A stretch of 24,000 bases of DNA from Candidatus Nomurabacteria bacterium (GCA_020631865.1 JACKGS010000003.1:45098-69097), one strand, 5' to 3'; shown: positions 2,144 to 21,790, counted from the stretch's first letter. Notes: generated by a model not told the origin, from the sequence alone. A program made the numbers and translations.

Positions 2144-3586
2144 TTAATCTTCAACTATTAAACTTGTCATATTGAACGTTGTATCATTATCTTTTTGTGT
2201 AAAGCTGTAGTATGTTTTATAGTCTCTAGAAAAATATGCCTTAGATCCAGGCATTACTACGCTCAATAACTGAAGATTAGCAGAATCATATTCAAATATA
2301 TATGAACTGTTATCGGTCGATACGGCCTGAATCCGATGATCGTCTATCCATCCAAGCCTACTTCCACCTAGAATCTCAAACGGAAGAGTATTCTGATAAT
2401 TAAACAGATCCCTTAGATCATACACCGATACTTGGTTACTATTTTGTAACATTATAAATTGGCCTGAACCACTAGTCTCTATTTTTCCGATATTAGAAAA
2501 CTTTAACTTAACCAATGGTAGTTGTTTTTTTAATATCGGCTTCTTCAGTGGGTCTTTATAAATTACCGCACCAGAATCATCTGAATTTGCAATAACAAAA
2601 TAGTGGTGTTGATCATACTCATGATAAGAAAGGTTAACCGGAACGTCTAAATGATCTGACGATTCAATTACGTATGCATTGTGATCTTTATAGATACCTA
2701 TCTCACGCTTATCGTCCACATTACGTACAAATAAAATAGTGTCGTCTGAATACGGCTGGTAACTTATGATATTTTGCATCACCAGAGTTAAGCTCTGTGC
2801 TTTAATATCATATCTTGCTAGAGTACCGTCTTTTATGCCGTATATCTGGTTTGTATTATCACCAACAAAATGCACATCAAGTGGTGATTGTTCACCAAAA
2901 ATAGCTGTTATATTTATTACTTCAGTTGGATTTTCAACATCCAAACTTAATATCTGAGTCTTACCACTAGGCAGAGTCTGCTCCAAAAGAATATTTTTAT
3001 TGTTTAAAGCCCACTCAATAACCTTAAGCACGCCCAGCTTACCTTCCTCCTTCACGATGCTGGGACCTAGGTCTAAAGATTTAATTTTCGAGTTTTTGGC
3101 ATTAAGATCAATCAACTGAATATCACCACTGTCTTGAGAATAAGTTAATATTTTTTTCCGATCACCAGATTGACTAATCATTTCTGGGGTTTTGATACTT
3201 AGAATATGTTCTGAATTGAGCTTATTTGGTATCAGCAGTGGGTATCCAACCTCTCGAACCTTAGAGGCATCCACTCTAACAGTTTTTGACCAATCACGAT
3301 AACCTTTTAATTTTAAACCTAGTTTGTAGTCTCCAGCAGGCAATACAAACCTAGATGGCGCAGTGGAATCTTCTAGCTTGTCGTTAATATACACACTGGC
3401 AGATTCTGGACGATTATCTACCAAAAGCAGGCCATCCCTAACCACTTTTCCACCAGAACCCAGTCGATAACCTTGAGCTAGGTAAATCAGAAGTGCTGTA
3501 GTGATAATTGTCATTATGAATGTAATGGCATATGCTATGATTCTTAGAACAGTCTTTTGACGATCTTTTGTATCTACTCGATGCAT
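2144..3586 (-). CDS. PEGA domain-containing membrane protein
   Basis: An N-terminal TM helix (IIAYAITFIMTIITTALLIYL) is followed by a PEGA-like segment SVYINDKLEDSTAPSRFVLPAGDYKLGLKLKGYRDWSKTVRV and a long beta-rich C-terminal region. I prefer the ATG at 3586 (MHRVDTKDRQK...). The longest ORF reaches 3646 but adds an implausible Cys/Tyr-rich leader. Confidence 0.7.
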   Translation of the reverse strand: MHRVDTKDRQKTVLRIIAYAITFIMTIITTALLIYLAQGYRLGSGGKVVRDGLLLVDNRPESASVYINDKLEDSTAPSRFVLPAGDYKLGLKLKGYRDWSKTVRVDASKVREVGYPLLIPNKLNSEHILSIKTPEMISQSGDRKKILTYSQDSGDIQLIDLNAKNSKIKSLDLGPSIVKEEGKLGVLKVIEWALNNKNILLEQTLPSGKTQILSLDVENPTEVINITAIFGEQSPLDVHFVGDNTNQIYGIKDGTLARYDIKAQSLTLVMQNIISYQPYSDDTILFVRNVDDKREIGIYKDHNAYVIESSDHLDVPVNLSYHEYDQHHYFVIANSDDSGAVIYKDPLKKPILKKQLPLVKLKFSNIGKIETSGSGQFIMLQNSNQVSVYDLRDLFNYQNTLPFEILGGSRLGWIDDHRIQAVSTDNSSYIFEYDSANLQLLSVVMPGSKAYFSRDYKTYYSFTQKDNDTTFNMTSLIVED

Positions 3587-3700
3587 ATATCCATAATAAC
3601 ACTTGCAAGCACGTTTATTACGGCGTAATATTATAAGAGCAAGCAAAAGCGCAATGTAATTTAAATTTAATCGATAATCTAGAAGTAGGCATCAAAAAAT

Positions 3701-8943: not shown

Positions 8944-9342
8944 TTAGCCTATGTCAATAACTTTGCCATGACGCGTAATAAACTTTATGGCCACGATCTT
9001 CGGCAATTCCAAAAGCTGTGTAGCCAACTCTCGCTCAACAGCTTTGTCTGGCATACCCTTCATACGCTTTGCGGTAAAGACTATTTTGTTAGACTGCCAA
9101 CCGGCTAATTTGAGATTACGCCTAACGGCCTTGAGGCTGCTAGTACGTGGTGATTTCATTTCCCACTTTTCACCGTCTATTAATACGTCGGGCGTTGATT
9201 CGTATTTTTTATCACTTGGTTTTATGAATTCAACTGTATAGCCAGCGTTCGCCAACCGATCTGCCATATATTGCTCATGCGGCCAGACATTAAGCCCGGC
9301 AATTTTGATTACTTTTCCAACTTTATTTGACATCACCTCCAT
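8944..9342 (-). CDS. small PD-(D/E)xK-type nuclease-fold protein (resembles stand-alone CdiA-CT/tRNA-nuclease-like toxin domains)
   Basis: The 132-aa ORF contains STPDVLIDGEKWEMKSP, which fits the D...ExK catalytic motif. A downstream QSNKIVF strand follows. The family assignment is from memory of the motif pattern only. Confidence 0.45.
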   Translation of the reverse strand: MEVMSNKVGKVIKIAGLNVWPHEQYMADRLANAGYTVEFIKPSDKKYESTPDVLIDGEKWEMKSPRTSSLKAVRRNLKLAGWQSNKIVFTAKRMKGMPDKAVERELATQLLELPKIVAIKFITRHGKVIDIG

Positions 9343-9384
9343 TATACATCAAGAAGTTTTTCTACCTCTGTCTCCTCAGTATAC

Positions 9385-9495
9385 GGGTGAACCAAAACCA
9401 TCAAGGCAGTATTCGCCCATAAGATATAAGGTTTTTATTCTTTTTAATTGAATATCTTAAGGGGAATCTCCACCCTGACAGTTTTGGTTCATCCC
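9385..9495. repeat. 111-bp segment bounded by 11-14-bp inverted repeats (MITE-like element or regulatory hairpin)
   Basis: gggtgaaccaaaac (9385-9398) and gttttggttcatccc (9481-9495) are reverse complements over 11 contiguous bp, or 14 bp with one bulge. The segment lies just upstream of the minus-strand gene starting at 9342. Confidence 0.4.
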
Positions 9496-9702
9496 GAAGC
9501 CCTTTCTTTAAGAAAGAGCATTAATGCACCTCTCAGAAATGCTTCTTGACCTCTGTAATCCACTGCGCAAAGCTGCCTTTTTCGGTGCAATATTCAACAC
9601 AGTGCCGACCTACGCAGAAATAAACTTGAGAACCAATAAAATAAGCTCGCTACCAGAGGTAAACGAGCTGTTTCTTATTCGGACTTCTTTAAAATCCACG
9701 TA

Positions 9703-9721
9703 TGGTGATCCCGGCGGGATA
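9703..9721 (-). repeat. tRNA-3'-end-like 19-mer, copy 1 (att-like)
   Basis: tggtgatcccggcgggata is the reverse complement of TATCCCGCCGGGATCACCA. That reads as T-stem 3' strand, acceptor 3' strand, discriminator and CCA. It matches 13319-13337 at 18 of 19 positions. No cloverleaf is attached. Confidence 0.6.
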
Positions 9722-9866
9722 AACGCTTCGCTACTCTCTACGGCACTTACTCGAAGCAAGCTTCTGCGTCAGCACCTTGCGATCGAACCTCGAGGGTTCG
9801 GACTCTCTGCGAGAGCTAACCAAGTAAAAACCCCAGTCTTTTGACCGAGGCACTTGCTTGGTGACC
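9703..9866 (-). ncRNA. candidate structured RNA, copy 1 (unknown family)
   Basis: Hairpins present are cgaacc/ggttcg, ctctc/gagag, and a long composite hairpin ccaagta..ccccagtc-tttt-gaccgagg..tgcttgg. Two mismatches in the inner stem become G-U pairs only in the minus-strand transcript. The architecture and length match copy 2. Confidence 0.25.
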
Positions 9867-9994
9867 TCAAGAGTATCAATTTAGAACACCTTTTTGATGA
9901 TCTCTTTAGGCTTAAGAAGAAGTTCGAAGCACTCGGTATGGTAATTAAAGACAACCGGGTTTATATACCTGACTCGGCGGAACGTGATAGTTAG
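9854..9994 (+). CDS. small conserved peptide ORF or gene remnant, copy 1 (LGDLKSINLEHLFDDLFRLKKKFEALGMVIKDNRVYIPDSAERDS)
   Basis: It is similar at the protein level to the C-terminus of ORF 13388..13615, with synonymous and conservative codon changes (Leu ctt/ttg, Gly ggt/ggc, Asp gac/gat, Pro cct/ccg). A possible TTG start lies at 9854. It is in frame with ORF 9524..9844 across a single TGA. Confidence 0.3.
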   Translation: MLGDLKSINLEHLFDDLFRLKKKFEALGMVIKDNRVYIPDSAERDS

Positions 9995-10031
9995 CTTCAG
10001 CACAACAATGTCGAGTTTAAGCAAAATGCCC

Positions 10032-10202
10032 TAAGAGTCAGCGGACAGAGAAGCCGGCGTTACGATCATTGTTGTCAGCCGGGTTAACTTCATCAGCGTT
10101 GAAGTTCGCGTTGAAAGCATTGTCCGCAGAATCCGGGTGAGCCGAGGCCGCCCAAAAGTTGCCGTTGTCACCCTGGTTGTCGAACTCGCCGTTCCAGTTG
10201 CC
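10032..10202 (-). repeat. DGR template repeat (TR), non-coding
   Basis: It aligns over 171 nt without gaps to 11624-11794. All 24 differences are at plus-strand T, which is sense-strand A, in this copy. The sense strand has 13 AAY codons in the VR frame and an in-frame TGA, so this copy is not translated. Confidence 0.9.
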
Positions 10203-10443
10203 AGAAATCGCAGAAGTCCCGGGACGGCGCGCGCTTGTTAATACTGCTCCCTGTATTGCACTCAGCGTACCGAGTACAAGCAGACCCTGGTGGCGCTTCC
10301 TGTAATAGAACTAGCCGAGATACTAATCAAAGCTAGTGAGTATTGTCTCTTAGGTATGCTTGTCGGGTTGGCGATTCATCAGTCAACCAGCTATATATGA
10401 GCCACCAAGAGTTGTCTGCTCTTGCGCCAAACCAAGCACACTT

Positions 10444-11529
10444 TTATTGTACACCCCGAGCAATATCTACCATTTTCAGCAAGCGGCAATGCTTGTAGTG
10501 TTTTACCAGCCCCTTGTATGAGGCTTCGGTTTCCGGTGAGCAGTCTGCATTGGACAGTGCAGCTACCAAATTATGTTTCAAACGCTTACCGGGATGCAAC
10601 CGAAATGGATAGACAACAGCGCCAAGAAAGGCGACGCCCTTGTTGCACTCTTGTAAATGTCGTTTGCGCGGATGCAAAACTAGGCTCAGCTCACTGCTAA
10701 CATATCTCTCGATAACCTTACTGGCTTCTACCAGCTCTGCTTTGTTGGTAGAGATGAGGTAGAAATCATCTACGTAGCGTCCATAGTGCTTAAAGCCAAG
10801 CTCAAATGTTACAAATCGATCAAGTTGATCCAGGTAGATATTGCTCAGCAGCTGCGAGGTCAGGTTGCCAATAGCCACACCGCGACCAAGAGGCTGGTGA
10901 AACAAGCTTTTGCTCGGCGGCAGGCCTTTCCAGGCGCTGCGCGGACAGTTGAACACCGCGTCTTTGAGGGGATCATTAAAGATAATGACTTTCCATAAGA
11001 ACTTGCACAGTTGGTAGACATAACCTTTATCTGGGAATTGCCTATCCAGCCCCCACATGGCCCTTTTATAGAGTTTTTTACGATCTAAGCTCATAAAGTA
11101 CCCCTGGAGATCAAGCTTGAGTATGTAGGCTGGCCGAGTATAATTACGGCTCACCGAGCGGATGTGATGATCCAAACGGCGAATACCGTAGAGCGTGCCT
11201 TTACCGATACGGCAGCTGTAGTTATCTTCAATAAATCGGGCGTCCCACCACTTGCTGACTTGGTTGAACAGAAAGTGGTGTACCACTCTGTCACGGAAGG
11301 CGGCGGCGAATATCTCCCGCTTGACAGGCTTGTTCACGATGAACGCCGTAGATGGCCGCGGTACGTACCTGCGCGAGTGAATTTCTTTGGCCAGTGCTGC
11401 AAGTTCAGACTCCGCGATAGCATCGAACTTTTCTACCTCGGGCTTTTTAGTCTTGCCGCGCCGGGCATCGAGGTAGGCTTTTTTGAGCTCTTTGGCAAGC
11501 CAGTCAGCGCGTTTGTCTGGTGTGTTCAT
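10444..11529 (-). CDS. DGR-type reverse transcriptase
   Basis: The 361-aa ORF carries REIFAAAFRDRVVHH, LDLQGYF, AIGNLTSQLLSNIYL (the DGR-typical [ILV]GxxxSQ motif) and the catalytic RYVDDFYLI (YxDD). It has no maturase or endonuclease extension. It sits between VR and TR. Confidence 0.9.
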   Translation of the reverse strand: MNTPDKRADWLAKELKKAYLDARRGKTKKPEVEKFDAIAESELAALAKEIHSRRYVPRPSTAFIVNKPVKREIFAAAFRDRVVHHFLFNQVSKWWDARFIEDNYSCRIGKGTLYGIRRLDHHIRSVSRNYTRPAYILKLDLQGYFMSLDRKKLYKRAMWGLDRQFPDKGYVYQLCKFLWKVIIFNDPLKDAVFNCPRSAWKGLPPSKSLFHQPLGRGVAIGNLTSQLLSNIYLDQLDRFVTFELGFKHYGRYVDDFYLISTNKAELVEASKVIERYVSSELSLVLHPRKRHLQECNKGVAFLGAVVYPFRLHPGKRLKHNLVAALSNADCSPETEASYKGLVKHYKHCRLLKMVDIARGVQ

Positions 11530-11550
11530 GTCAGCTAGATTTCTTTCGGA

Positions 11551-11618
11551 GCAACCCAGTCGACTCGACGGGTTCGGTCGTGGTCACTCCCTCACGCCAG
11601 CTTCGCTTAGTGGGTTGC
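11551..11618 (-). promoter_or_regulatory. stem-loop in the 88-nt target-RT intergenic region, immediately 3' of VR
   Basis: gcaaccca (11551-11558) pairs with tgggttgc (11611-11618, overlapping the target stop codon). The enclosed 52 nt contain smaller GC-rich palindromes, gtcgactcgac and cgacgggttcggtcg. Confidence 0.35.
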
Positions 11619-13033
11619 TACTGTAAGAGACAGCGGACAGAGAAGCCGGCGTAACGAACATTGTAGGCAGCCGGGTGAACTTCAACAGCGCCGAAGCCCG
11701 CGAAGAAAGCATAGTCCGCAGAATCCGGGTGAGCCGAGGCCGCCCAAAAGACGCCGTAGACACCCTGGTAGCCGAACTCGCCGACCCAGAGGCCCGAGAA
11801 GACCCCTTTAAAGGCACCGTTATACTGCCACTGGGCAATGTTGGGTTCGCCACTATATGCAGGAGCACCGGTACCACCAAAGGCAATGTCGAGGTCAGAG
11901 AAGTCGCCGGAGTAGACATCTTCTCCTTCGTCATCATCCCAGATCTGTGAAGCGGTCGGTAATCGCCAGTTGGCCGGGCAGATAGAGTACGGGGCATCAC
12001 CGTCTTCTTCGGTGTGGGAGGTTCTGGATTCACCGGCTGTGGCCGCAGACCAGTTGTAGAGGTAGCCGTAGTTGGTAGCACCACTGCCAGTGTCACCGGG
12101 GATTGGGCCGTAGACGAAAGGTGTATCGAAGAGGTTATCTTCGTCTTCCTGAGTATCCATAGGGGGATTGTCGGTAATCTGTGGCAGGGTCAGGTTACTG
12201 GCAATGTTGGTATCGCTTGGGGTCAGCGTCATGGTGGATGTGGTAGAACCAAGTTTGAGGTTCTGAAGCATCCAGCAGTTACCATCGGCTAGTTTGGCGA
12301 CTTGGTAGGTTTGGGTGGTGCCACCACGACTGTCGGTGAGTTCTATGACTGCTTCTTCATTGCTACCAGTGTAGGTAGCAAGGGCATCACATTGCTGAGG
12401 AGTAAAGCTTTGCATGGTTGCACTAGTTGCACCGTTGTCGGTGATGGCGTAGGCAAGCTTGAGATCTTTCTTGCCTGCAGTTACAGTGCTGTCAATGGTG
12501 AAATCTAACGTTACTTCGGTTGTGTCGTTGGAAGTGGCAGTTTCGGTGGTTTTGAGAGTCAGAGCTGGGTCGCCAGCGCCAAGTACTGTGCTCGTAGCTA
12601 TATCGCCACCCTTGAGCTTGATACTAATACCAGGTTCAGCTGCGGTTAGGGCTGCGGTCAGGGTATAGCCGCCTTCGTTAGCGGTGCCGGTAGTGAGGGT
12701 AGTTGTGGTACTGGCGGTACCACCACCCTCCGGGACGGTAACAGTGAGAGCCTCTTGGTTAGCGCCAATACTGAGGGTGGGAGCAGCGGAGATGGAACTA
12801 CTGAGAGGACTGAGCGTGAGGCTGGCGGTGAAGAGTGCGAGGAGGAAGAAGCTGCCCATACCACGGAAGTTGAGTTTATGCGAACGGCGGGAGAGGTAGC
12901 GCCAACTGAAGATGCTGGAAGCTATGAGAGCGAGGGCTGTAGCGAGGAGCGGTAAGAGTGATATGCCTGTTGAAGCGAGACCATCTCCCCCGATGATGAT
13001 GTTGATCGTTTGGGTAAGTGTTTGGGTTTCCAT
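11618..13033 (-). CDS. DGR target protein: secreted or surface protein with a Thr/Ala/Gly-rich beta region and a C-terminal lectin-like (Fibrobacter-succinogenes-major-paralogous / C-type-lectin-fold-like) variable domain
   Basis: The N-terminus has hydrophobic segments with a signal-peptide-like FLLALFTASLTLSPLSSSISA-AP. Domain landmarks are YQVAKLADGNCWMLQNLKLG, YGYLYNWSAAT, ICPANWRLPT and the terminal AGFSVRCLLQ. The last 57 codons are the VR. An AGAGGA sequence lies 5 nt before the ATG. Confidence 0.85.
   Translation of the reverse strand: METQTLTQTINIIIGGDGLASTGISLLPLLATALALIASSIFSWRYLSRRSHKLNFRGMGSFFLLALFTASLTLSPLSSSISAAPTLSIGANQEALTVTVPEGGGTASTTTTLTTGTANEGGYTLTAALTAAEPGISIKLKGGDIATSTVLGAGDPALTLKTTETATSNDTTEVTLDFTIDSTVTAGKKDLKLAYAITDNGATSATMQSFTPQQCDALATYTGSNEEAVIELTDSRGGTTQTYQVAKLADGNCWMLQNLKLGSTTSTMTLTPSDTNIASNLTLPQITDNPPMDTQEDEDNLFDTPFVYGPIPGDTGSGATNYGYLYNWSAATAGESRTSHTEEDGDAPYSICPANWRLPTASQIWDDDEGEDVYSGDFSDLDIAFGGTGAPAYSGEPNIAQWQYNGAFKGVFSGLWVGEFGYQGVYGVFWAASAHPDSADYAFFAGFGAVEVHPAAYNVRYAGFSVRCLLQ
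11624..11794 (-). repeat. DGR variable repeat (VR) inside the target gene 3' end
   Basis: This is the partner of TR (coordinate offset 1592). It encodes GLWVGEFGYQGVYGVFWAASAHPDSADYAFFAGFGAVEVHPAAYNVRYAGFSVRCLL. TR in the same frame encodes GNWNGEFDNQGDNGNFWAASAHPDSADNAFNANFNADEVNPADNNDRNAGFSVR*LL. Confidence 0.9.
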
Positions 13034-13250
13034 GTGTTCCTCTGCTCTCTTTACTTTTCTTATGTCTGCTGTACTTGAGTGTAATGAGTGGATAGCAAAA
13101 TGGTAAGAAATTGCTTAATCCATTGTTTTTGCTTCCACTTCACCTCACTATATTAATACTGCTTACGTATATTCTACATCATTATGAACGGAATGCAAGC
13201 AGTTTAGTACCCCCGCGGGGTTAAAACTCCATCCTACGTAGGTAATGTAC

Positions 13251-13286
13251 AAAAAAGAATGTGTTCTTAGATATATTTAAGAACAC
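13251..13286 (-). terminator. Rho-independent terminator-like hairpin (minus strand)
   Basis: A 9-bp stem gtgttctta/taagaacac (13261-13269 / 13278-13286) encloses an 8-nt loop. On the minus strand it is followed by AUUCUUUUUU (13251-13260). It lies 33 nt downstream of the CCA-like end at 13319 and upstream of the DGR target promoter region. Confidence 0.5.
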
Positions 13287-13318
13287 TTTCTTATCTGTGA
13301 TTTATCTGATTTTATGCT

Positions 13319-13337
13319 TGGTGACCCCGGCGGGATA
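13319..13337 (-). repeat. tRNA-3'-end-like 19-mer, copy 2 (att-like)
   Basis: tggtgaccccggcgggata is the reverse complement of TATCCCGCCGGGGTCACCA. It matches 9703-9721 at 18 of 19 positions. Confidence 0.6.
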
Positions 13338-13490
13338 GCGGACTTTGTCCTTTTCCGCTTAGACATGCTCGGAGTTAACTCCTGCGCGTGTCTGCGCTAC
13401 ACCGTACCCGCTTCGCGTGTTTCGGTTCTCGTAGAGAACCACCAATAAAATACCCCACCGCAAGGGTGAGGTATTTTATTGGTGAGCCCA
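13319..13490 (-). ncRNA. candidate structured RNA, copy 2 (unknown family)
   Basis: An 18-bp hairpin ccaataaaataccccacc-gcaag-ggtgaggtattttattgg has one C-A mismatch on the plus strand that becomes G-U on the minus strand. Other hairpins are the 7-bp ggttctc-gta-gagaacc, ggag-ttaa-ctcc inside agaca..tgtct, and gcgga..tccgc. The element ends in the CCA-like 19-mer and is followed by the terminator at 13251-13286. Confidence 0.3.
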
Positions 13491-13615
13491 CTAGTATTAA
13501 TTTAGAACACCTTTTTGATGATCTCTTTAAGTTGCGAGATAGGTTCAAAGCACTAGGCATGGAGATTAAAGATGGCAAAGTGTATTTGCCGGATTTGGAG
13601 ACTGATCATGTTTAA
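13478..13615 (+). CDS. small conserved peptide ORF or gene remnant, copy 2 (IGEPTSINLEHLFDDLFKLRDRFKALGMEIKDGKVYLPDLETDHV)
   Basis: This is a homologue of 9854..9994. The frame is open from 13379 and the ORF track uses GTG 13388. No canonical start lies next to the conserved part, so the 5' end is uncertain. Its stop overlaps the PLD gene start as ATGTTTAA. Confidence 0.35.
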   Translation: MGEPTSINLEHLFDDLFKLRDRFKALGMEIKDGKVYLPDLETDHV

Positions 13616-14072
13616 TTATCGTGGTTCGATCTCAGGACTTTATGACCAAAACACATTTGATGGGCAATTTCTAAAAGACATTGCTAGGGCACGTAGCAGT
13701 CTGGTGATTGAAAGCCCATTTATCAGGTTGGGTAGGGTAGAGCAACTATTGTCTGTAATAGCTAAGCTCCGTCGCCGCGGAGTGACTGTGATTATCAACA
13801 CCCGAAGCCCTAAGGAGCATGACAATGTCTACGAAACTCAGGCTGAAGAAGCTATTGAAATGCTCCAGAATTTAGGCGTAACGGTACTATTTACTGTGAA
13901 ACACCACCGTAAATTAGCAGTTATTGATGGTGAGGTGTTTTATGAAGGGAGTCTTAATATTCTCTCCTACTATGATAGTTGTGAGATAATGAGACGAACG
14001 GTATCACCAAGTGAAGCCGAGGTACTCCTACGATTCATTGGACTGCAAAAATACCTAACGAAAGCGAGCTAG
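13608..14072 (+). CDS. PLD/HKD-superfamily nuclease-like protein (single HKD domain)
   Basis: HHRKLAVIDGEVFYEGSLNI fits HxK(x)4D(x)6GSxN exactly. It is about 155 aa, the size of Nuc-type single-domain members. I prefer the start at ATG 13608 (MFNYRGS...); the track start at 13572 adds a Cys/Trp-rich leader. Confidence 0.75.
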   Translation: MFNYRGSISGLYDQNTFDGQFLKDIARARSSLVIESPFIRLGRVEQLLSVIAKLRRRGVTVIINTRSPKEHDNVYETQAEEAIEMLQNLGVTVLFTVKHHRKLAVIDGEVFYEGSLNILSYYDSCEIMRRTVSPSEAEVLLRFIGLQKYLTKAS

Positions 14073-14305: not shown

Positions 14306-16903
14306 TTAGTCATCAATTTTCTTCCTGTTCTTAGTAGTTGTCTTTGATGCTTCATCACTCTTGGTACGGTCACTGCTTTTTGTTATGACTTTTTGCCTTT
14401 GGTTGCCCTCAGTTACGGGTGACGCTTCCTGCTTCTTAGCAAATGATGCACGTGACAACTCTATGGCACGTTGTGAGACTTCTTGACTCCCATCACCAAC
14501 TAGTAACAATGTTTGACCAGACATGGGCTCCTGGGGTGTAATAGCAGATAATTTGGCATAGAAGTTAAAGGCCGGAACGTTACTCATCTCTCCTTGTTCA
14601 ATATATGGCGAAAAGAGTGGTAGTAATAATCTTTCATCTTCAGGATTTCCAGTTCTAAAACTAATGATCGTACCGACGTTTGCCAAGATGATACTTACCA
14701 TCTGCTGGTCTTTTTGTTGAGAAGTAGACTGTTCAGCCATCACCATAAATAACTTATACTTCCGTGATTCAGACAGCATCTGCACGAATGAAGACGTGGC
14801 AAAGTTCTGGAACTCATCAACGTACAAATAAAAATGTCGACGTTCACTCTGGGGGATACGGGCCCGCCGCAAACTGGCTAGCTGCAATTTAGCAAGTACA
14901 GTGATCCCAAACAATTCCGAAGTATCTTCACCAAGAATACCTTTAGAAAAGTTACAGATAAGAATCTTACCTGAGTTAATGATGTCATCGAAATCAATGG
15001 TAGAACGTGGTTGTTCGAGGATTTGCTTAGCAGAAGCTGAGAACAAAAACCGTCCGATCTTTGCCGTGATACCGGCTGCCATTTTAACTTTCTGCATGTC
15101 TCCAGCTTTACCAAGTTCGTTATTCCAAAAGTTAATTAGGTTTTTATCTTCCAGTGTTTTTATAATCTTTTTTCTATACTTAGTATCATTGAGTAGATCA
15201 AAGACCGTGAACAGGGTAGCGCCTTCTACTGTCAGGGCGGTTTGTATGGTGTTTCGAAGGACATATTCAATGCGGTGACCGCCGGTGTCTTCTTCTGAAA
15301 ATATCTTCCGAAATACCGAAATGACAGATTCAGTAATGATATCTTTTTCCCTCAGTAAATCATTACCAGATATCTCGGGAGTAAGCTCCAAGATATTGAG
15401 CCCAATGGGGTACTCTAAATCATCTGGATTGAAGTAAACGACGTCATCGATGCGATCTGGTGGCACATGTCGAAGTAGCGTTTCTGCCATGTCGCCGTGC
15501 GGGTCAATGATTGCGACACCTTTGCCACTTCTCATATCTTGAGTAATGGCGTACTGCAGCATGGTTGTCTTACCGTTACCAGTGCCACCAATGATGTACA
15601 TATGTCGCTCACGCTCTGGTTCAGTTAAACCAATGAGTGTTTCAGTGCCTCTGTGTATATTTTTTCCAATAATGACATCAAGTGCATGATGTTGCTTGAG
15701 GGATATTGGTGCCGGAAGGGTCCGACTGAGCGAACTTACAAGATTATCTGTTTTACTTATGTAGCTGCTGGGGAAGTGGAATAAACTAGATAACTCTGAA
15801 GCGGAAAGTATTAATGAATGTGAACGATAAATACCTGGAAGCCTCAAGCTGGCAAGCTTTAATTGGTAAGCCCGAAGGAGCGGATTATACATTTTGGCAC
15901 GAAGTTCTTGGTACGGCGGCACCGAGTATGCATCAAGCGAAGATTTCAAAGCCGACACGTGATCCTTGGTGTGATTACTGGTGATAAGCAGTCTGAGATC
16001 TACCTGGAAAAGGGGCTGGGTGAGTTTTTGGTGCATTGATTCCATAAGCTCTAATTCAAAAGCACTGAGCGTTCGAGCCGGACGTTGGCGTTTCATAACC
16101 TGGGCTTGAAACTGCGCATCTTTGCCCGACTTGTTTTTGTAATGAGCATCGGTTGAGCCGTTATATACTTCACCGACCATTTCGGTCGCTCCGAGCATAG
16201 CACCACCAAGTACATCGGTCAGCGAATGAAGCCGCGAAAGCTTACCCTGTTCAACTCGCCGCAGTATATCTTCGTTACTTAAGATTCTTCGAGATAGTTT
16301 ACGCGCTTCAGGAAGGTGAACCGGCGTAACAACGAGCTGCATGGATATTTGCTCGTCGTCTGCTAAATTTGTCATAGCGCTGGTGATATATGACAGCGGA
16401 TCGTGTTGATCAAACGCTTTGGAGGTGCTGATAGGTAGTACGTAGTGATTCTTCTGAGTAAACTCGATAACCTTGTCCGCGGGCTTAGGATGATAATCGA
16501 CGATACTCACTTTACTATCCGGGATGTAAGCAGCTATGGCTTTTTGGACGGTGCTGCTGTGTTTTTTCTCGATTTGAATATAGAAGCGGATACCGCTAGA
16601 TTTGGTTGAGGTGATCTCGAAACTCGACGTTGGACTACGCTTTAAGATTCGATCGCGCAATGCCCGTGCGGCGTATAATCCATGAATGACGGAGAATAGT
16701 TGCTGAGTGGCTTCTGGTGTCTTTTTGATAGAAAGCGGGGGAGTCACTTCAAGCCAGACGAGGTCACGATGGTAGAGATATCTTCTGTTCAGAATTAGTA
16801 TGAGCAGCTTACATATGAATACGGTGGCGACTGCAGTGAATAGGCTAATGACTATAGTAGGCCACTGCTCAATGATGGTAGAGATATATCCTGGGGGTTC
16901 CAT
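14306..16903 (-). CDS. type IV secretion coupling protein (VirD4/TraG/TraD-like ATPase)
   Basis: An N-terminal TM helix is present. Walker A is MYIIGGTGNGKTT and Walker B is HFYLYVDEFQNFAT. The intervening AIIDPHGD and the LFMVMAEQS motifs are typical of T4SS DNA-transfer/TraD-type ATPases. The C-terminal tail is Lys/Ser/Thr-rich. Confidence 0.8.
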   Translation of the reverse strand: MEPPGYISTIIEQWPTIVISLFTAVATVFICKLLILILNRRYLYHRDLVWLEVTPPLSIKKTPEATQQLFSVIHGLYAARALRDRILKRSPTSSFEITSTKSSGIRFYIQIEKKHSSTVQKAIAAYIPDSKVSIVDYHPKPADKVIEFTQKNHYVLPISTSKAFDQHDPLSYITSAMTNLADDEQISMQLVVTPVHLPEARKLSRRILSNEDILRRVEQGKLSRLHSLTDVLGGAMLGATEMVGEVYNGSTDAHYKNKSGKDAQFQAQVMKRQRPARTLSAFELELMESMHQKLTQPLFQVDLRLLITSNHTKDHVSALKSSLDAYSVPPYQELRAKMYNPLLRAYQLKLASLRLPGIYRSHSLILSASELSSLFHFPSSYISKTDNLVSSLSRTLPAPISLKQHHALDVIIGKNIHRGTETLIGLTEPERERHMYIIGGTGNGKTTMLQYAITQDMRSGKGVAIIDPHGDMAETLLRHVPPDRIDDVVYFNPDDLEYPIGLNILELTPEISGNDLLREKDIITESVISVFRKIFSEEDTGGHRIEYVLRNTIQTALTVEGATLFTVFDLLNDTKYRKKIIKTLEDKNLINFWNNELGKAGDMQKVKMAAGITAKIGRFLFSASAKQILEQPRSTIDFDDIINSGKILICNFSKGILGEDTSELFGITVLAKLQLASLRRARIPQSERRHFYLYVDEFQNFATSSFVQMLSESRKYKLFMVMAEQSTSQQKDQQMVSIILANVGTIISFRTGNPEDERLLLPLFSPYIEQGEMSNVPAFNFYAKLSAITPQEPMSGQTLLLVGDGSQEVSQRAIELSRASFAKKQEASPVTEGNQRQKVITKSSDRTKSDEASKTTTKNRKKIDD

Positions 16904-17412
16904 GTTTGAGCTCCTCTCATGCCATGAATAAATGAATAGCTGATTGCAGCATCTTTAGAAAAGGTACGTTTGCTTACTATGTTAAGTCCAAGTACATTCA
17001 TCTCCGATATGGTGAATTCTCCAGTCATACTATCGACATGTATAACGTAGGCTACATGACCAAACTCTCCGGAATCGGTTTGGAAAATTGCACCAACGGC
17101 AGGGGTGTTATTGACTTCATAGCCATCATTCCATGCTCGATCGTCCCACGTATTGGCGTTGCCCCAACTTGTGGGGATAGGGTAACCGGCCCAATGACGC
17201 ATTGAATACACCCAGTAGGTACAGTTGCCCCAAGCGTAGGTATTGCCCTCAGCGTGCCCCCCAGTATAGAAACCTTGCGATTCAGCTGCAGCCAAGCTTG
17301 GTACATTTGAAAGAAACGATAACACACTGCCGCCCATAGAAAATACTGCTGCGAAGGGCAGAGCAATAATCACTGACATAGTGGCGAGAAGCAGTATGAG
17401 CTGTTTCTTCAT
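16852..17412 (-). CDS. secreted CHAP-domain peptidoglycan hydrolase (VirB1 functional analogue)
   Basis: It has a signal or TM segment MKKQLILLLATMSVIIALPFAAV, a catalytic Cys in WGNCTYWV and a His in FGHVAYV. An alternative GTG start lies at 17457. The 3' end overlaps the coupling-protein start by 52 nt. Confidence 0.75.
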   Translation of the reverse strand: MKKQLILLLATMSVIIALPFAAVFSMGGSVLSFLSNVPSLAAAESQGFYTGGHAEGNTYAWGNCTYWVYSMRHWAGYPIPTSWGNANTWDDRAWNDGYEVNNTPAVGAIFQTDSGEFGHVAYVIHVDSMTGEFTISEMNVLGLNIVSKRTFSKDAAISYSFIHGMRGAQTWNPQDISLPSLSSGLL

Positions 17413-17453
17413 ATTGCCGCTAGTGACTACATTCAGCGCTACGAAACCTACAC

Positions 17454-19202
17454 TCACGTGTACAGCTCCGCAGGATCAGTGGTAATGAGCGGATGCTCTT
17501 TTTCGCTCGCGACCACTTTTACAGCCACATGATTCTGATCCGCAATAATCAGCGCATCTCCACGCTCACAGGTGAGCAGAAACTGTTGTTCATACTCTGA
17601 GAGATTAAATTCACTAACGACGCCTTTGATAGTCGTAGTGTCTTGGCGCATCAGAATTCTTAGCGCTGACTGCGAGGCAATAGCCCGACCGTAGCAGTTC
17701 TTCAAAAAGTCATCAGCTTGTTGGGTAATGATGGAAACTCCGAGGTAGTATTTTCGAGCTCGTCTGACAAGTCCAGCCACAAACTGGGCACTTTGCTCAT
17801 GCTCAAGTAGTAACCAACCTTCATCGATGACCAGTAAGCGTTTTTCTGGACGGGCTTTGACTTGATTCTGAATAAAGGTAGAGATTATCAGCATCATGAT
17901 CGGACGTAGGTCTCCGGGCATGTCTTTGATATCGAAAACCACCAGGCGATTATCTAATTTAATGTTGGTGTGTGAATTGAAGACTTCGGCAATGGATCCG
18001 GTTATATATTTCTCCAGCCGTTCACAGAGCTGCAAATGACCCAACTTATGTAACTCAGCGTACAGATCTTGAAGCAGTGGTTGCTCATTTTTGGCTTTTT
18101 TATAGACTTTGAGGATTGCTTTATCGACTGCCGCTTTTTCACGTTTTTCGAGACCCTCGGCCATCAAGGCTATCACTGCTGTTAGATCCTGAACATGTTC
18201 AGCAAGATCACTTTTGGAATGAAAAGTACTGGCTAGATCAAACGGGTTAATCTTTTGTTTGCTTTTAGCAGATAGTTTTATGTAGGTGCCACCAACTGAC
18301 TCACTAAGGTTTTTATATTCCCGTTCTGGATCAATGACCAGCACTTTGGTGCTCTGCATGAGCTGCCGGAGTATCTCTACTTTGGTGGTGTAGCTTTTAC
18401 CTGAGCCACTTTGTGCAAAGACTATTGAGTTAGCGTTATGGAGTGCGAAGCGGTCTAAAATAACCAGTGAGTTATTCGACTTATTAACGCCGTAGAGGAT
18501 GCCGGATTCTTGGACTAACTCGGAGCTCATAAATGGGAAGGTGAGGGCGGCGGAACTACTATCGAGGTTCCGTTTTTGAGAAAGCTGGTCTTCACTTCTG
18601 GGTAGAACCGACTGCAGAGCTTCAAGTTGTTCATAGCGGGCAACTTTAGAGTAAAACAGGCGAGCGGATAGAGTCGCTTCCAGGAGCTTGGTAATCTTAT
18701 TGAGCTCGGTCAAACTATCGGCACGGAGGCATACATAGATGGCCATTTGGAAGAGCTTTTCTTGACCACGTTGAATCTTGTCGCGAAGTTCAATAGCAGA
18801 TTCTAGTGGGTCAGTGATTTCTGAGCCAACTATCTTACCAGCTCGCATCATGGCTCGCTTGGTACTCTCAAGCTCAGTTATCTTACGATGTAGTTTTGGT
18901 AGAGCAAGCAGGGCATCCACTTCATGCAGATGATAGCTGATATCACTATCATGGTTAAAGTTAATTAAACTATCCATCCAGCCGGAACTGGCTACAAACG
19001 GGTAGCCAGATATATACAGTGTTCTAATATAGACGCCGTCCAGTAAGAGGTAATCGGGATTTTCTTCTAGTCCAGCATAGCTCAGAATATCCACGGCATC
19101 TTGTTCGCCAAATGTTAGCGATAATTCACTTCGTTTGTTTTCTCTGGCTCGTTTTTGTTGTTTGATTTTGTCTTTGGTTCGTTCAAGTAGTTTACCTGGC
19201 AT
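17454..19202 (-). CDS. virB4: VirB4-family T4SS ATPase, C-terminal two thirds (ATPase part of a split VirB4)
   Basis: Walker A is VFAQSGSGKSYTT and Walker B is RLLVIDEGWLLLE. LGVSIITQQ is also present. The N-terminus YIRTLYISGYPFVASSGWMDSL matches the middle region of Gram-positive VirB4/TcpF/PrgJ-type proteins. An AAGGAG sequence lies 7 nt before the ATG. Confidence 0.85.
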   Translation of the reverse strand: MPGKLLERTKDKIKQQKRARENKRSELSLTFGEQDAVDILSYAGLEENPDYLLLDGVYIRTLYISGYPFVASSGWMDSLINFNHDSDISYHLHEVDALLALPKLHRKITELESTKRAMMRAGKIVGSEITDPLESAIELRDKIQRGQEKLFQMAIYVCLRADSLTELNKITKLLEATLSARLFYSKVARYEQLEALQSVLPRSEDQLSQKRNLDSSSAALTFPFMSSELVQESGILYGVNKSNNSLVILDRFALHNANSIVFAQSGSGKSYTTKVEILRQLMQSTKVLVIDPEREYKNLSESVGGTYIKLSAKSKQKINPFDLASTFHSKSDLAEHVQDLTAVIALMAEGLEKREKAAVDKAILKVYKKAKNEQPLLQDLYAELHKLGHLQLCERLEKYITGSIAEVFNSHTNIKLDNRLVVFDIKDMPGDLRPIMMLIISTFIQNQVKARPEKRLLVIDEGWLLLEHEQSAQFVAGLVRRARKYYLGVSIITQQADDFLKNCYGRAIASQSALRILMRQDTTTIKGVVSEFNLSEYEQQFLLTCERGDALIIADQNHVAVKVVASEKEHPLITTDPAELYT

Positions 19203-19831
19203 TAGTTATCTCCTTTTTGAGTTAGGGCGGTGTGGATGAGTGACAAGGCCTGCTCAGTGAGCGGCTGGATCTTGGCCATTGAAGGATTATAGAAACCGTA
19301 AAACAGATCAAGTATTTCAAAGCTGGACAATAACTTGGTGTGCATACCAAGTCGGCTCATGCCTTTACTGATAATGTCTACTTTGATCTTCAGCTGTTCT
19401 TTAATCAGATCAAAGTCCGTCTTGTTGGCTGCGGCGTATGGAATGATCAGATAGAAGTGGCGGGTCAGGATTTTGTTGGTGGTGACGAGCGAGCTGATAA
19501 ACTCTTTATAGTTCAAAAGCTGAGAACGGTAGATTGGCTCAGACTCACTCGCAAACCGATCAGATAGATCCTGAAGGTATTTATCCATATCTATTTCTCT
19601 GGTTCGTATGAGAATTTGCAGGTTACTACCAATCGAATTCAGAAAACTTTCATAGGTATCGATAATAGCATCCTGCTCATCCTCACTTTTCAGTTCAAAG
19701 TTGAGTGATGATACTTCCAGTACTGCCCGGAACTGGTTATTTGGGAGTATCAGAATACTATCCTGTACGCCCTTAATGGCAATCTGATTTCGGGAACTGG
19801 TCTTAGTCTTGGATTTCTGTAAGGCGAACAC
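19202..19831 (-). CDS. VirB4 N-terminal domain protein (first part of a split VirB4)
   Basis: IAIKGVQDSILILPNNQFRAVLEVSSLNFELKSEDEQDAIIDTYESFLNSIGSNLQILIRT matches the N-terminal domain pattern of Gram-positive VirB4-like ATPases. The start is placed at GTG 19831, which is preceded by AAGGAG with a 6-nt spacer. The stop overlaps the next ATG as TAATG. The longer track ORF to 20089 overlaps the upstream gene. Confidence 0.65.
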   Translation of the reverse strand: MFALQKSKTKTSSRNQIAIKGVQDSILILPNNQFRAVLEVSSLNFELKSEDEQDAIIDTYESFLNSIGSNLQILIRTREIDMDKYLQDLSDRFASESEPIYRSQLLNYKEFISSLVTTNKILTRHFYLIIPYAAANKTDFDLIKEQLKIKVDIISKGMSRLGMHTKLLSSFEILDLFYGFYNPSMAKIQPLTEQALSLIHTALTQKGDN

Positions 19832-20312
19832 GTAATGCTCCTTTCTTGGATGTTTCAAAACGAAGCTTCGCTTCCGGATGATCGACGCGGGCGAGTACTC
19901 TGGCGGTTTGATGGAAATCGAGTTGCGGCATTTGCATAGTCGTTTCACGGGTGAAGGCTTCGGATTCATTATCTGATTCAATCGTGATAGCGTCGTAGTC
20001 TTTTCGATATGCATGCGTATTCTTATTGAAGATGTAATACTTTGGACGCAGGTTATACCGGGCAATTGTAAGTATCCATAGCAAGACAATTTTGCCTCTT
20101 ATTCGAATGGCAAGAATAAAACTGACAAGTGAAACGACAGTAATAATAAGGTACTTATATAAACTGCCGCCCATATTTGGCGGCAGTAGTGCGTATAGCC
20201 CGGCTCCGATAAACACCGGCAAGATAAACAGGAGTATCTGAGACAAACCGAGGTTTCCCATTATGCGGTCTTCTACTGTAGTCACTTGAGCGGGAACAAC
20301 GGTAGTTTTCAT
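19803..20312 (-). CDS. PrgI/VirB3-like small T4SS membrane protein
   Basis: VPAQVTTVEDRIMGNLGLSQILLFILPVFIGAGLY and a second TM helix fit the PrgI-family pattern. The gene sits directly upstream of VirB4. Its ATG overlaps the upstream stop as ATGA, and an AAAGGA sequence lies 6 nt upstream. Confidence 0.65.
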   Translation of the reverse strand: MKTTVVPAQVTTVEDRIMGNLGLSQILLFILPVFIGAGLYALLPPNMGGSLYKYLIITVVSLVSFILAIRIRGKIVLLWILTIARYNLRPKYYIFNKNTHAYRKDYDAITIESDNESEAFTRETTMQMPQLDFHQTARVLARVDHPEAKLRFETSKKGALRVRLTEIQD

Positions 20313-21790
20313 AATTCATCCTTTCCGGTTCTTGGCGTTGGTGGTGTGCTCTTGATTACTGTCGTCCGTGGAGTCGGTTTTGGTGCGGCGTAGGTAGTGC
20401 CCGTCGGCAGGTTGCTAGAATGAGTCGACTGCTTACCTGACGGCTTAGATACACTTGGGCTGCGGTAGGTACTTGTATTGTTGAAGCGTTTATACGATCC
20501 GCCACTTGCTGCAGTAATTCCAGCTCTGCTCGTTGATCCAGTCGTAGACTTTGAGGCAACTACTGAGCGGCCTTTTGTTTGCATGTAGGATATGCCATTC
20601 ATAAACTGACTACCGAGTTTACGAGCATTACGGGCGCCCATACTGACGTAACTAAACTGCATCATAACTCCCTGAGTTTTAAGAAGTACAAGTACTGTAG
20701 CGAGGCCAACCACCATACTCATGAGGGTATTGGGAAGTTGCTCGCCACTTGTAACTGACATACCCGTGAAAAGCGAGGAGGCAAGTTGCAGGGTGACAAC
20801 GTGTACAAAAAGTACAAAGATAGTCGTGATGTAGGTTCGAACAGCGCTTGATGAAAAGTCACGGAAGCCAGGGATCAGCCAGATCATAATGATAAGGGGC
20901 GAGAGGACGGCGCCAATAAACAGCGTAACAATCCTCCCCACGTAGTAGACCATCAGTACAACTGAGACGATTAAGAAGGCTAACATAATCAGCAGAGCGG
21001 CTGCGCTCTGTCCGCCACTTTCTGAAACGACGGTGGACAGTGTTTGCCAGACGGAGCTACTGCCACTGACTTTACTGATTGCTGTGATGAGCACATTGGA
21101 TAGTTCGATAATTGCATCGATGATAAAGATCGAAGAATTAAGTAGTAAAAAGGCCAGCCCAATACGCGGCAGTAGGTGTTTGACTTCAATTTCATCAAAC
21201 CCAAATGTCGCAGCGCTCATGACATGAAAGCCGAGCAGAGCCACGATAACAATAAGTAGCACATTGGTGATACCAACCACTGCTAACCAAAGATTAAAGA
21301 CACTGGAGTTTTCTGCCATCAAAGGCGTTTCCTTGGTGAAGTAATCAAGCGCCGCCAAAAACGGTGCGCCAACAGCTTGGATAATGTTATTTAAAAATCC
21401 GGTTACGGCACGAATCAGTACATCGACCAGGCCGTTACCAACATCAGCTGGTTCTATTGCTTCGAGTGCAGGAAGGGAAGTGTTAGCACCTCCAGCAGGA
21501 GCGCCGTATGCATTACTCAGAACGGAGACTAACGTCGCAGATGCAATGACGATCACCAGTCCAATCAAGGCGTTTCTGATAATACGCTTGGCGTTTTCTA
21601 GGGACTCAGGATTACCACGACTGGTGATGTAGCCATAGCCACCATAGACCAAAAAGAACACAACGGCTACCGTAGCGAGACTAGCTAACATACGTATAGT
21701 TGGATACACATACTCTCGCATAACTGCGATGGCACCCGAGGAGTCTGCCATGAGCTGCAAACTCATGGTGAAATAATCAGGAATATTCAT
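20309..21790 (-). CDS. polytopic VirB6/TrbL-like T4SS membrane protein with an N-terminal pilin-like module and an S/T/P-rich tail
   Basis: There are at least 7 hydrophobic helices. Residues of about 36-95 (ASLATVAVVFFLVYGGYGYITSRGNPESLENAKRIIRNALIGLVIVIASATLVSVLSN) are homologous to the adjacent pilin. A GGAGG sequence lies 5 nt before the ATG. Confidence 0.65.
   Translation of the reverse strand: MNIPDYFTMSLQLMADSSGAIAVMREYVYPTIRMLASLATVAVVFFLVYGGYGYITSRGNPESLENAKRIIRNALIGLVIVIASATLVSVLSNAYGAPAGGANTSLPALEAIEPADVGNGLVDVLIRAVTGFLNNIIQAVGAPFLAALDYFTKETPLMAENSSVFNLWLAVVGITNVLLIVIVALLGFHVMSAATFGFDEIEVKHLLPRIGLAFLLLNSSIFIIDAIIELSNVLITAISKVSGSSSVWQTLSTVVSESGGQSAAALLIMLAFLIVSVVLMVYYVGRIVTLFIGAVLSPLIIMIWLIPGFRDFSSSAVRTYITTIFVLFVHVVTLQLASSLFTGMSVTSGEQLPNTLMSMVVGLATVLVLLKTQGVMMQFSYVSMGARNARKLGSQFMNGISYMQTKGRSVVASKSTTGSTSRAGITAASGGSYKRFNNTSTYRSPSVSKPSGKQSTHSSNLPTGTTYAAPKPTPRTTVIKSTPPTPRTGKDEL

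Follow-up and report, generated by a model that had tools for sequence, protein, structure and literature searches.

A 24,000-nucleotide (nt) stretch of a metagenome-assembled genome (MAG) labelled Candidatus Nomurabacteria (GCA_020631865.1 JACKGS010000003.1:45098-69097; hereafter "the window", meaning this whole stretch) very probably carries a complete and recently active diversity-generating retroelement (DGR) of architecture A2, belonging to Saccharibacteria. Its parts are a target gene ending in a variable repeat (VR), a structured element just downstream of that repeat (the post-VR element), a reverse transcriptase (RT), an RNA scaffold and a template repeat (TR), together with a putative cis-priming mechanism that would work free of the accessory protein Avd. 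That the locus is a DGR had been proposed in an initial annotation of the sequence, and this interpretation is supported by the affinity of the RT, by the adenine-restricted TR/VR pair, and by a TR that is invariant across contigs next to a VR that is hypervariable. More than 30,000 DGRs have been catalogued, and bacteria of the Candidate Phyla Radiation (CPR) are enriched in them.

Seen as a DGR, the locus is ordinary, as both its A2 gene order and its target family are already published classes. What is new is the permuted, covarying scaffold and the large VR-linked element in an Avd-less clade, neither of which was found in Rfam or in the literature searched.

The repeat pair and its reverse transcriptase

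The protein-coding and repeat components of the element are as follows.

10032..10202, minus strand: TR; non-coding, with 40 adenines and 13 AAY codons among its sense-frame codons; 100% identical in 10 contigs encoding the same RT
11624..11794, minus strand: VR; codons 414-470 of the target gene, with 24 of 24 mismatches at TR adenines; varies among contigs only at TR-adenine columns, and also among members of the target's protein cluster
10444..11529, minus strand: DGR RT, 361 aa; RVT_1 domain, best Protein Data Bank match bRT (8ub7, E 1.7e-24), IGNLTSQ at residues 220-226 and YVDD at residues 252-255
11618..13033, minus strand: DGR target gene, 471 aa; two hydrophobic N-terminal segments and a FISUMP / Fib_succ_major domain at residues ~251-469

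Aligned without gaps at an offset of 1592, positions 10032-10202 and 11624-11794 differ at 24 of 171 nt, and every one of these mismatches falls where the 10032 copy has a plus-strand T, that is, a minus-strand A (40 such sites), while template positions with G, C or T differ nowhere (0 cases). The probability that 24 of 24 mismatches would land on 40 A sites among 171 is 5.4e-19 (hypergeometric). This ungapped pair, with its 24 mismatches confined to 40 template adenines, had been described in the initial annotation, which also held that a mismatch at any non-adenine template position would speak against it; our recomputed alignment reproduced the pair exactly and contained no such mismatch. 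Read in sense orientation, the changes from TR to VR comprise 14 A>T, 7 A>G and 3 A>C, and identity between the repeats drops to the random level directly outside the 171 nt, such that extending the repeat to 174 nt gains two matching bases and one T/G mismatch.

At the codon level, a recount agreed with the earlier claim that 12 of the 13 template AAY codons are altered in the VR (to L, V, Y, F, G or H), and coding changes in the VR lie exclusively at codon positions 1 or 2. With 38 adenines upstream of the TR 3' boundary, the theoretical repertoire amounts to ~1e22 proteins. The VR had been taken to form the last 57 codons of a 471-aa open reading frame (ORF): it does cover 57 codons, but these are codons 414-470, and the final codon (CAG, Gln471) and the stop lie outside the repeat. 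The placing of the TR in non-coding sequence 241 nt downstream of the RT agrees with the ORF coordinates, the RT stop codon ending at 10444 and the TR beginning at 10202. The reading of the mismatches as a signature of adenine mutagenesis was upheld in that all 24 fall on A, with the reservation that one of them (10038 versus 11630) is probably a fixed boundary difference. As a separate observation, a 1.7-kb contig (P0249) carries a target VR that turns midway into unmutated TR and ends at the TR TGA, the product of an assembler jump or else of genuine recombination between TR and VR.

The RT itself points to the same class of element. Its motifs IGNLTSQ and YVDD, flagged from the start as GxxxSQ and YVDD, are invariant across 34 homologues. 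The best solved relative is the Bordetella phage bRT (8ub7, E 1.7e-24), and the next solved matches, at ~1e-5, are a retron-type RT, a group II intron RT and Cas6-RT-Cas1. Relatives at 38-51% identity come with Avd plus TR/VR, and A-biased TR/VR pairs (at least 80% of mismatches at adenine) were present in 54 of 83 related loci from genomes and metagenomes; the initial annotation had made its reading depend on how the RT groups, and the bRT match and these A-biased relatives both place it with DGRs. The nearest phage RTs are those of Bacteroides and Pseudomonas phages (36-40% identity), with Bordetella phage records among the 92 matches.

Other RT identities found no such backing. The NCBIfam models of group II intron, retron and Drt RTs all scored far under their cut-offs (44.7 bits versus 235 for the retron model NF038233; 83.5 bits versus 300 for the group II intron model TIGR04416), and neither retron RNA nor group II intron RNA was matched in Rfam at the gathering threshold or at E<=5. 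A retron identity was ruled out by the low NF038233 score, the lack of an Rfam retron match and the presence of a VR target, and a group II intron identity by the low TIGR04416 score and the lack of an intron RNA match. RVT_1 was the sole domain match in the RT, in which no endonuclease domain was found.

Gene order and the RNA scaffold upstream of the template

Distant RT relatives (38-51% identity) almost all have the order VR, avd, TR, RT, versus VR, RT, TR in the window and in all members of its clade (L011-L014 and L094-L107; 65-88% RT identity), where the RT begins ~90-170 nt after the target stop. An Avd profile that we based on 27 relatives, including one confirmed as bAvd (PF22296), recovered its positive controls at E 1e-20 to 1e-54 and found no Avd in six-frame translations of the window and of L001-L014 (best E 3.4), a search that covered 24 kb of this genome and 4-13 kb per relative. 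The 800-nt gap between target and RT in L012 holds a RelB/YafQ toxin-antitoxin pair rather than Avd; this RelB/YafQ-type pair, at 5340-5908 of L012, separates the post-VR element from the RT in a DGR that is otherwise intact.

In the window, the RT is followed by the TR on one strand, with no accessory gene, which is the published layout of architecture A2 (RT-TR, no accessory gene; PMC5758913), so that the locus belongs to a known DGR class. Architecture A makes up 29% of DGRs (PMC5758913), and a missing accessory gene is therefore compatible with DGR membership. Accessory genes (Avd, HRDC, MSL, CH1) are found in ~74% of DGRs and are not universal, and avd is absent from 26% of DGRs, for which Avd-independent homing has been proposed without a mechanism (Wu et al. 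2018, PMC5758913). Compared with the A2 architecture and target category d of that survey (PMC5758913), the window's DGR is alike in gene order, in having no accessory gene and in its target family. The survey reports gene order only, with no RNA scaffold or post-VR element for the A2 class (PMC5758913). The CPR DGRs it lists are mostly B3, TR-(avd)-RT, which the window's element is not, and Legionella has the order avd-TR-RT, unlike the RT-TR order here.

The 241-nt spacer between RT and TR is a conserved, covarying, pseudoknotted RNA. Its parts, and the piece of the TR with which it pairs, are listed below.

10203..10443, minus strand: RNA scaffold (RT-TR spacer); structure by comparative analysis (RNAalifold plus pair counting), covariance model (CM) R1 matching 10236-10361 at 117 bits
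10439-10434 with 10361-10356, minus strand: H1, scaffold helix
10431-10425 with 10373-10367, minus strand: H2, scaffold helix
10418-10410 with 10388-10380, minus strand: H3, scaffold helix
10409-10401 with 10294-10286, minus strand: H4, pseudoknot, CUUGGUGGC with GCCACCAAG, first spotted by eye
10345-10339 with 10245-10239, minus strand: H6, CAAUACU with AGUAUUR
10337-10331 with 10316-10310, minus strand: H7, 7-bp stem-loop
10280-10270 with 10265-10255, minus strand: H9, long stem-loop with UACG loop
10346..10354, minus strand: primer-strand analogue CCUAAGAG plus A10346, forming helix H5 with the TR 3' boundary; candidate priming adenosine, by analogy with BPP-1 Sp A56
10030..10038, minus strand: TR 3' boundary, made up of A165 (10038), CUCUUA (10037-10032) and GG (10031-10030); partner strand of H5, and an apparently non-transferred end resembling the IMH* (initiation of mutagenic homing) of other DGRs

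The spacer is highly conserved throughout the clade, and 3' of the TR conservation ends after 1-3 nt. For the comparative analysis, we aligned 11 clade members as a construct in which the scaffold is joined to the last ~16 nt of the TR and 6 nt of its flank, imitating the TR-deleted RNA of the BPP-1 cryo-electron microscopy work. RNAalifold returned 64 pairs on this alignment, 39 of them with compensatory changes, and found unprompted the long-range helix H5 between CUAAGAG of the scaffold and CUCUUAG at the TR 3' boundary. With the pseudoknot added, 92.6% of cells were paired versus 31-46% when the 3' partners were slid, pairs changed on both sides numbered 43 versus 12-18 when slid, and the observed pairing values were reached by 0 of 500 shuffles. 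Covariation extends to H5 itself, with TAAAAG facing CTTTTA in L105 and CAAGAG facing CTCTTG in L102 and L106. For the scaffold base at -1, immediately beyond the TR/VR homology, 10 of 11 members show a pair with the TR flank and none (0 of 11) shows one with the VR flank, and on these counts we rejected a pairing of the scaffold strand with the VR 3' end at the flank positions.

The scaffold-core model R1 matched every clade member, including six loci (five distinct sequences) outside its seed, and gave no match in 79 Avd-carrying relatives. Rfam searches over 9300-13700, at the gathering threshold and at E<=5, returned noise only for the scaffold and for the post-VR element, so neither corresponds to a described family. 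Folded as single sequences, the spacer plus TR and the post-VR region were no better than shuffles (z = -0.9 and -1.0, respectively); the structure becomes apparent only through comparison.

Within the scaffold, the strand CCUAAGAG-A-CAAUACU (10354-10339) forms H5 with CUCUUAGG (10037-10030) and, one nt later, H6, whose partner at 10245-10239 is located ~40 nt upstream of the TR; after H6 come the 7-bp stem-loop H7, an invariant single strand GUUCU and the long UACG-capped stem-loop H9. Because a single scaffold strand pairs with the TR 3' boundary and then with the upstream segment, the TR is looped out between adjacent duplexes. The ribonucleoprotein of the Bordetella phage BPP-1 offers a template for reading this geometry: TR nt 117-129 form a duplex with spacer (Sp) nt 47-56, at whose end lies Sp A56, the priming nucleotide, with TR G117 as the first templated base, Sp 59-70 pair two nt further on with a segment upstream of the TR that forms the stop of cis-primed reverse transcription (cPRT), and the TR is looped out between these adjacent duplexes, followed by a short stem-loop, a conserved single strand and a long RT-binding stem-loop (bioRxiv 10.1101/2023.10.23.563531). 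By analogy, we infer that the two adjacent duplexes of the scaffold correspond to the template:primer and cPRT-stop duplexes of BPP-1 in circularly permuted form.

The two RNAs are alike in having the TR looped between two adjacent duplexes and then, in order, a stem-loop, a conserved single strand and a long stem-loop. They differ in that the duplex-forming strand lies 5' of the TR here and 3' of it (Sp) in BPP-1, and in the extra 5' domain and pseudoknot of the window's scaffold. Homology to the Sp regions of canonical relatives was found neither with CM R1 (79 Avd-carrying loci) nor by eye, so "permutation" refers to matching geometry and not to sequence homology. Beyond the RNA, the locus resembles that of BPP-1 (mtd-avd-TR-brt) in its DGR-clade RT with I/LGxxxSQ and YxDD, for which bRT is the best solved relative, in its A-specific TR/VR pair at the C-terminus of a ligand-binding protein, and in a TR whose final nucleotides apparently remain untransferred, as with IMH*. 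It departs from BPP-1 in having no Avd, in a TR placed after rather than before the RT, and in a target that is a chromosomal FISUMP domain rather than the phage-borne Mtd. The published survey of conserved DGR RNA elements deals with Avd-containing DGRs only, and its elements lie downstream of the TR.

A likeness to retron non-coding RNA (msr-msd, with a1/a2 pairing) can also be drawn, as both place a structured non-template RNA 5' and the template 3', and both form a duplex between the 5' part and the template's 3' boundary, next to which priming would occur at an internal 2'-OH. Unlike in retrons, the RT here is a DGR RT, the template rewrites a homologous genomic target, and mutagenesis is adenine-specific.

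The boundary of the template fits the geometry of H5. Position 165 is A in the TR (TGA codon) and T in the VR (TGT, Cys), corresponding to 10038 and 11630 of the window, and this A/T difference recurs in all 12 clade members that carry a TR as well as a VR, and likewise in all population alleles. In H5, TR A165 stands opposite the invariant scaffold A10346 as an A.A mismatch, and A10346 is complementary to VR T165. The last 7 nt of the TR and VR (positions 165-171) behave as a boundary, and the mismatch at 165 is probably a fixed difference of the IMH/IMH* type, not a product of mutagenesis. Priming at A10346 with copying from G164 would explain both the invariance of position 165 and the harmlessness of the stop codon in the TR.

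Several further observations concern how the scaffold-TR RNA is expressed and distributed. A sigma-70 scan gave no convincing promoter for this RNA in the window; a conserved TACAAT at the 3' end of the RT gene is suggestive only. In L100 (3001-6669), the RT lies on one strand and the target with its VR, the post-VR element, the scaffold and the TR on the other, with a good sigma-70-like promoter (TTGTCG-N16-TATAAT) upstream of the scaffold, which suggests that the scaffold-TR RNA can be transcribed as a separate unit. In L102, an additional scaffold copy (3457-3690) precedes a shortened TR-like segment that adjoins a Fic gene, and L106 (1370-1560) has a scaffold with a TR truncated to ~50 nt and then a tRNA-like sequence. 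Both look like DGR RNA modules that are either degenerate or secondary.

The post-VR element and the proposed priming mechanism

A second conserved structure lies between the target and the RT.

11542..11625, minus strand: post-VR structured element; closing stem 11621-11611 with 11558-11548, loops CAAAGCGA and GAGUCGACUGGG, inner hairpin; CM R2 at 84 bits

This element of ~75 nt runs from the target stop codon to ~15 nt before the RT start. Its 11-bp closing stem contains the stop codon TAG at 11620-11618, the internal loops CAAAGCGA and GAGUCGACUGGG are invariant, and an inner GC-rich hairpin, 39 nt after the VR, carries the loop GACC at 11585-11582. RNAalifold on 10 clade members gave 25 pairs, 16 with compensatory double changes, and the CM matched all clade members and no canonical relative (79 Avd-carrying relatives). 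The element stays with the VR and not with the RT, given that in L012 the RelB/YafQ pair is inserted between the element and the RT, and that in L100, whose RT is on the opposite strand, VR and element remain adjacent, as do scaffold and TR. G.U pairs occupy 23 cells versus 3 for A.C pairs, an excess which suggests that one sense strand (RNA or single-stranded DNA) folds, rather than a symmetric cruciform. A candidate interaction between GAGUC of the post-VR element and GACUC of the TR was rejected, as the element reads GCGUC in L098, L104 and L105 and their TRs do not change to compensate.

From its association with the VR, we infer that the post-VR element marks the VR as the recipient. Homing in BPP-1 requires a hairpin/cruciform with a 7-10 bp GC-rich stem and a 4-nt GRNA loop, placed 4-34 bp from the VR (PMC3240598). 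The hairpins of both systems are GC-rich with a 4-nt loop downstream of the VR; they differ in that the loop here is GACC and not GRNA, and in that the hairpin here is embedded in a larger conserved element of ~75 nt.

In the mechanism that we propose, the RT would bind the scaffold without Avd, and cDNA synthesis would be cis-primed at or beside A10346, the counterpart of Sp A56, with copying from about TR G164. The RT would misincorporate opposite template adenines and stop at the upstream duplex, leaving an RNA-cDNA chimera that would be fully antisense to the VR 3' end, as A10346 is complementary to T165 of the VR. The cDNA would then replace the VR, with the post-VR element designating the VR rather than the TR as recipient, and the outcome could be up to ~1e22 variants of the ligand-binding face of the surface protein. 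Put most compactly, this would be a two-component, Avd-independent DGR made of an RT and a circularly permuted RNA, in which the ~240-nt scaffold would supply A10346, the stop duplex and a pseudoknotted domain replacing Avd, and the ~75-nt VR-linked element would designate the recipient; we put this two-component form forward tentatively, as a serious candidate that still falls somewhat short of probable.

A number of points weigh against this proposal. Both the priming site and the independence from Avd are predictions, and the covariation comes from a single clade represented by 10-12 sequences. In the window itself the structures are imperfect, with two mismatches in the post-VR inner stem (GGGAGU/ACGACC) and one A/C mismatch in H6. 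Selection for Cys combined with the A>T bias could fix T165, with an estimated chance of ~0.14 in all lineages. Lastly, 24 kb of the genome are visible, so Avd or another accessory factor may be encoded elsewhere in it.

Two alternative accounts of the priming step and its protein requirements deserve weighing. One is target priming, in which the post-VR structure would recruit a nick at the VR 3' end, the DNA 3'-OH would prime on the TR RNA, and H5 would only present the TR 3' end. Target-primed reverse transcription was the original DGR model, and BPP-1 homing needs a hairpin (PMC3240598); the elaborate, conserved, VR-linked structure seen here and the poor conservation of the region 3' of the TR would both suit it. 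Set against this, the geometry of H5 and H6 matches the solved cis-priming architecture of BPP-1, the RT has RVT_1 only and no detected endonuclease domain, and the excess of G.U over A.C in the post-VR element points to a single sense strand and not to a DNA cruciform, and we judge target priming unlikely.

The other is that the locus is a canonical, accessory-dependent DGR whose Avd, or a substitute for it, is encoded elsewhere and acts in trans, the 5' scaffold being a local RT/Avd-binding RNA. Avd is essential for bRT activity in the Bordetella phage (bioRxiv 10.1101/2023.10.23.563531), Avd proteins are poorly conserved (PMC5758913), and our search took in 24 kb here plus 4-13 kb per relative, all of which leaves room for such a factor. 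Yet the profile that finds Avd in distant relatives is blank in the window and in 14 close loci, the avd slot between VR and TR is lost in every clade member, and a search of other Avd-less DGR genomes for trans-encoded avd found none (Wu et al., PMC5758913). Moreover, the extra 5' scaffold domain of ~110 nt (H1-H3 plus the pseudoknot), which has no BPP-1 counterpart, could assume the positioning role of Avd, and an Avd supplied in trans strikes us as rather improbable.

Recent activity, the target protein and its genomic setting

We evaluated the activity of the element across 10 metagenome contigs, from different samples, that encode an identical RT protein. The 171-nt TR is 100% identical in 10 of 10, and the VR allele of the window is common to 6 of 10, with other alleles in L006, L007, L008 and L010. 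The alleles of these four contigs vary at 28 columns, of which 28 are TR-adenine columns, and alleles differ between contigs by 8-20 A-site changes, while the rest of the cassette (~2.8 kb) in the same four contigs shows 0-1 differences from the window. A VR that changes at A sites within a near-invariant cassette indicates that the element was recently active, and 8-20 changes in the VR versus 0-1 elsewhere place its diversification later than almost any point mutation. Among proteins, the 90%-identity cluster of the target likewise holds at least 10 C-terminal VR alleles on an otherwise near-identical protein. The initial annotation had predicted that population variation would be confined to sites opposite template adenines, which is what the 28 columns show.

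An internal contrast to this A-only variation is provided by the target gene itself, where nt 512-671 (window ~12363-12522) carry 11-30 substitutions in L003, L004 and L009, of all base types and mostly synonymous; this tract is ordinary homologous recombination between strains.

These population data bear on two further alternatives. That the element is a fossil, its TR/VR pattern recording past activity, might be read from the mismatches in the window's copies of the post-VR inner stem and H6 and from the existence of degenerate relatives (the TR is truncated in L106, and the target gene call in L107), but the VR alleles lie 8-20 A-site changes apart over 2.8 kb that otherwise differ by 0-1 bases, the RT has an unbroken ORF that retains every catalytic motif, and the TR shows 100% conservation, making present inactivity very improbable. 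An ordinary diverged duplication or an assembly artefact, without any retroelement, would account for the mere existence of a repeat and for P0249, the 1.7-kb VR/TR chimera of assembler type, and can be dismissed given the adenine restriction (P = 5e-19) and the same A-biased pair in 10 independent assemblies and at least 12 diverged relatives.

The protein diversified by this DGR, a putative lectin-like surface protein, is NCBI MCB9822480.1 (exact match), annotated as hypothetical in a MAG labelled Candidatus Nomurabacteria. Its C-terminal domain matches Pfam PF09603 (E 4e-9; 37.4 bits, cut-off 33.9) and also TIGR02145, and an AlphaFold2 model of its last 253 aa reached a pLDDT (predicted local distance difference test) of 93.3. 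The Fib_succ_major/FISUMP family is filed as DGR target category d / CLec2 (DUF1566 / Fib_succ_major), an example being Legionella LdtA (PMC5758913). The closest genome matches are Candidatus Saccharibacteria MAGs, and the DGR lies in a Candidatus Saccharibacteria chromosome, where the cassette has a GC content of 50-57% versus a background of ~40%.

A Gram-positive-type type IV secretion system (T4SS) cluster (14306-21790, minus strand) immediately precedes the DGR target in the same orientation; it encodes a T4SS pilin, PrgI, a VirB4-like ATPase, a CHAP hydrolase and a VirD4-like coupling protein, and many homologues of the variable domain have an N-terminal type IV prepilin motif. The FISUMP domain, the position downstream of the T4SS and the prepilin fusions suggest that host-attachment or contact machinery is being diversified, and the protein is, on its sequence features, most likely a surface or contact adhesin of an episymbiont. 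In four relatives (L011-L013 and L094), it is instead the TR that the VirD4-like gene abuts, convergently. As an observation in its own right, linkage between DGR and T4SS recurs across the clade.

The N-terminus of the target (residues 1-50; 12880-13033) has a conserved L-A-(S/D/N)-T-G, then a hydrophobic helix and then RR/K. The motif resembles a sortase signal, placed N-terminally and ahead of a second signal-peptide-like segment, and is kept in L012-L014; a sortase ORF lies at 959-2137, 10 kb from the target. In the MAG to which the window's target belongs (locus tags H6801_), there is in addition a second RT (H6801_02255; P0030) of 79% identity, as well as a 217-aa protein (P0243) that repeats the target C-terminus but has a different VR allele. 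We considered P0243 as a remote second target and rejected it, as an exact look-up came back empty and the analogous 217-aa P0121 is a truncated call of the cassette's own target.

On either side of the cassette lie small paralogous ORFs at 9797-9991 and 13388-13615 (plus strand, opposite to the cassette), which share the peptide ...SINLEHLFDDLF(K/R)L..F.ALGM.IKD..VY.PD., have 73% DNA identity with differences at third codon positions, and contain a repeat, D2 (9847-9977 and 13468-13598). Same-RT contigs lose homology to the window exactly at the D2 repeats (13340, 13598 and 9819) and then continue in other contexts, so these repeats look like recombination or assembly breakpoints around a movable cassette; the upstream context in L001, L002 and L107 is VbhA-Fic-DinB. 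Other features of the flanks are an ORF with a CdiA_C-like toxin domain (8944-9342, minus strand), a PLD/Nuc-like ORF (13572-14072, plus strand) and an imperfect 43-nt inverted repeat at 9385-9494.

For the biology of this organism, public assemblies by themselves show directly that the DGR was recently active, something seldom achieved for an uncultivated episymbiont. For the wider family, the covarying scaffold turns the mechanism of an Avd-less DGR into testable nucleotides, namely H5, H6, A10346 and the post-VR element. DGR-based directed-evolution tools are being built in E. coli, and a compact diversifier of RT plus RNA would suit them. If the two-component reading is true, it would give Avd-less DGRs, which make up roughly one quarter of the total, a concrete mechanistic model for the first time.

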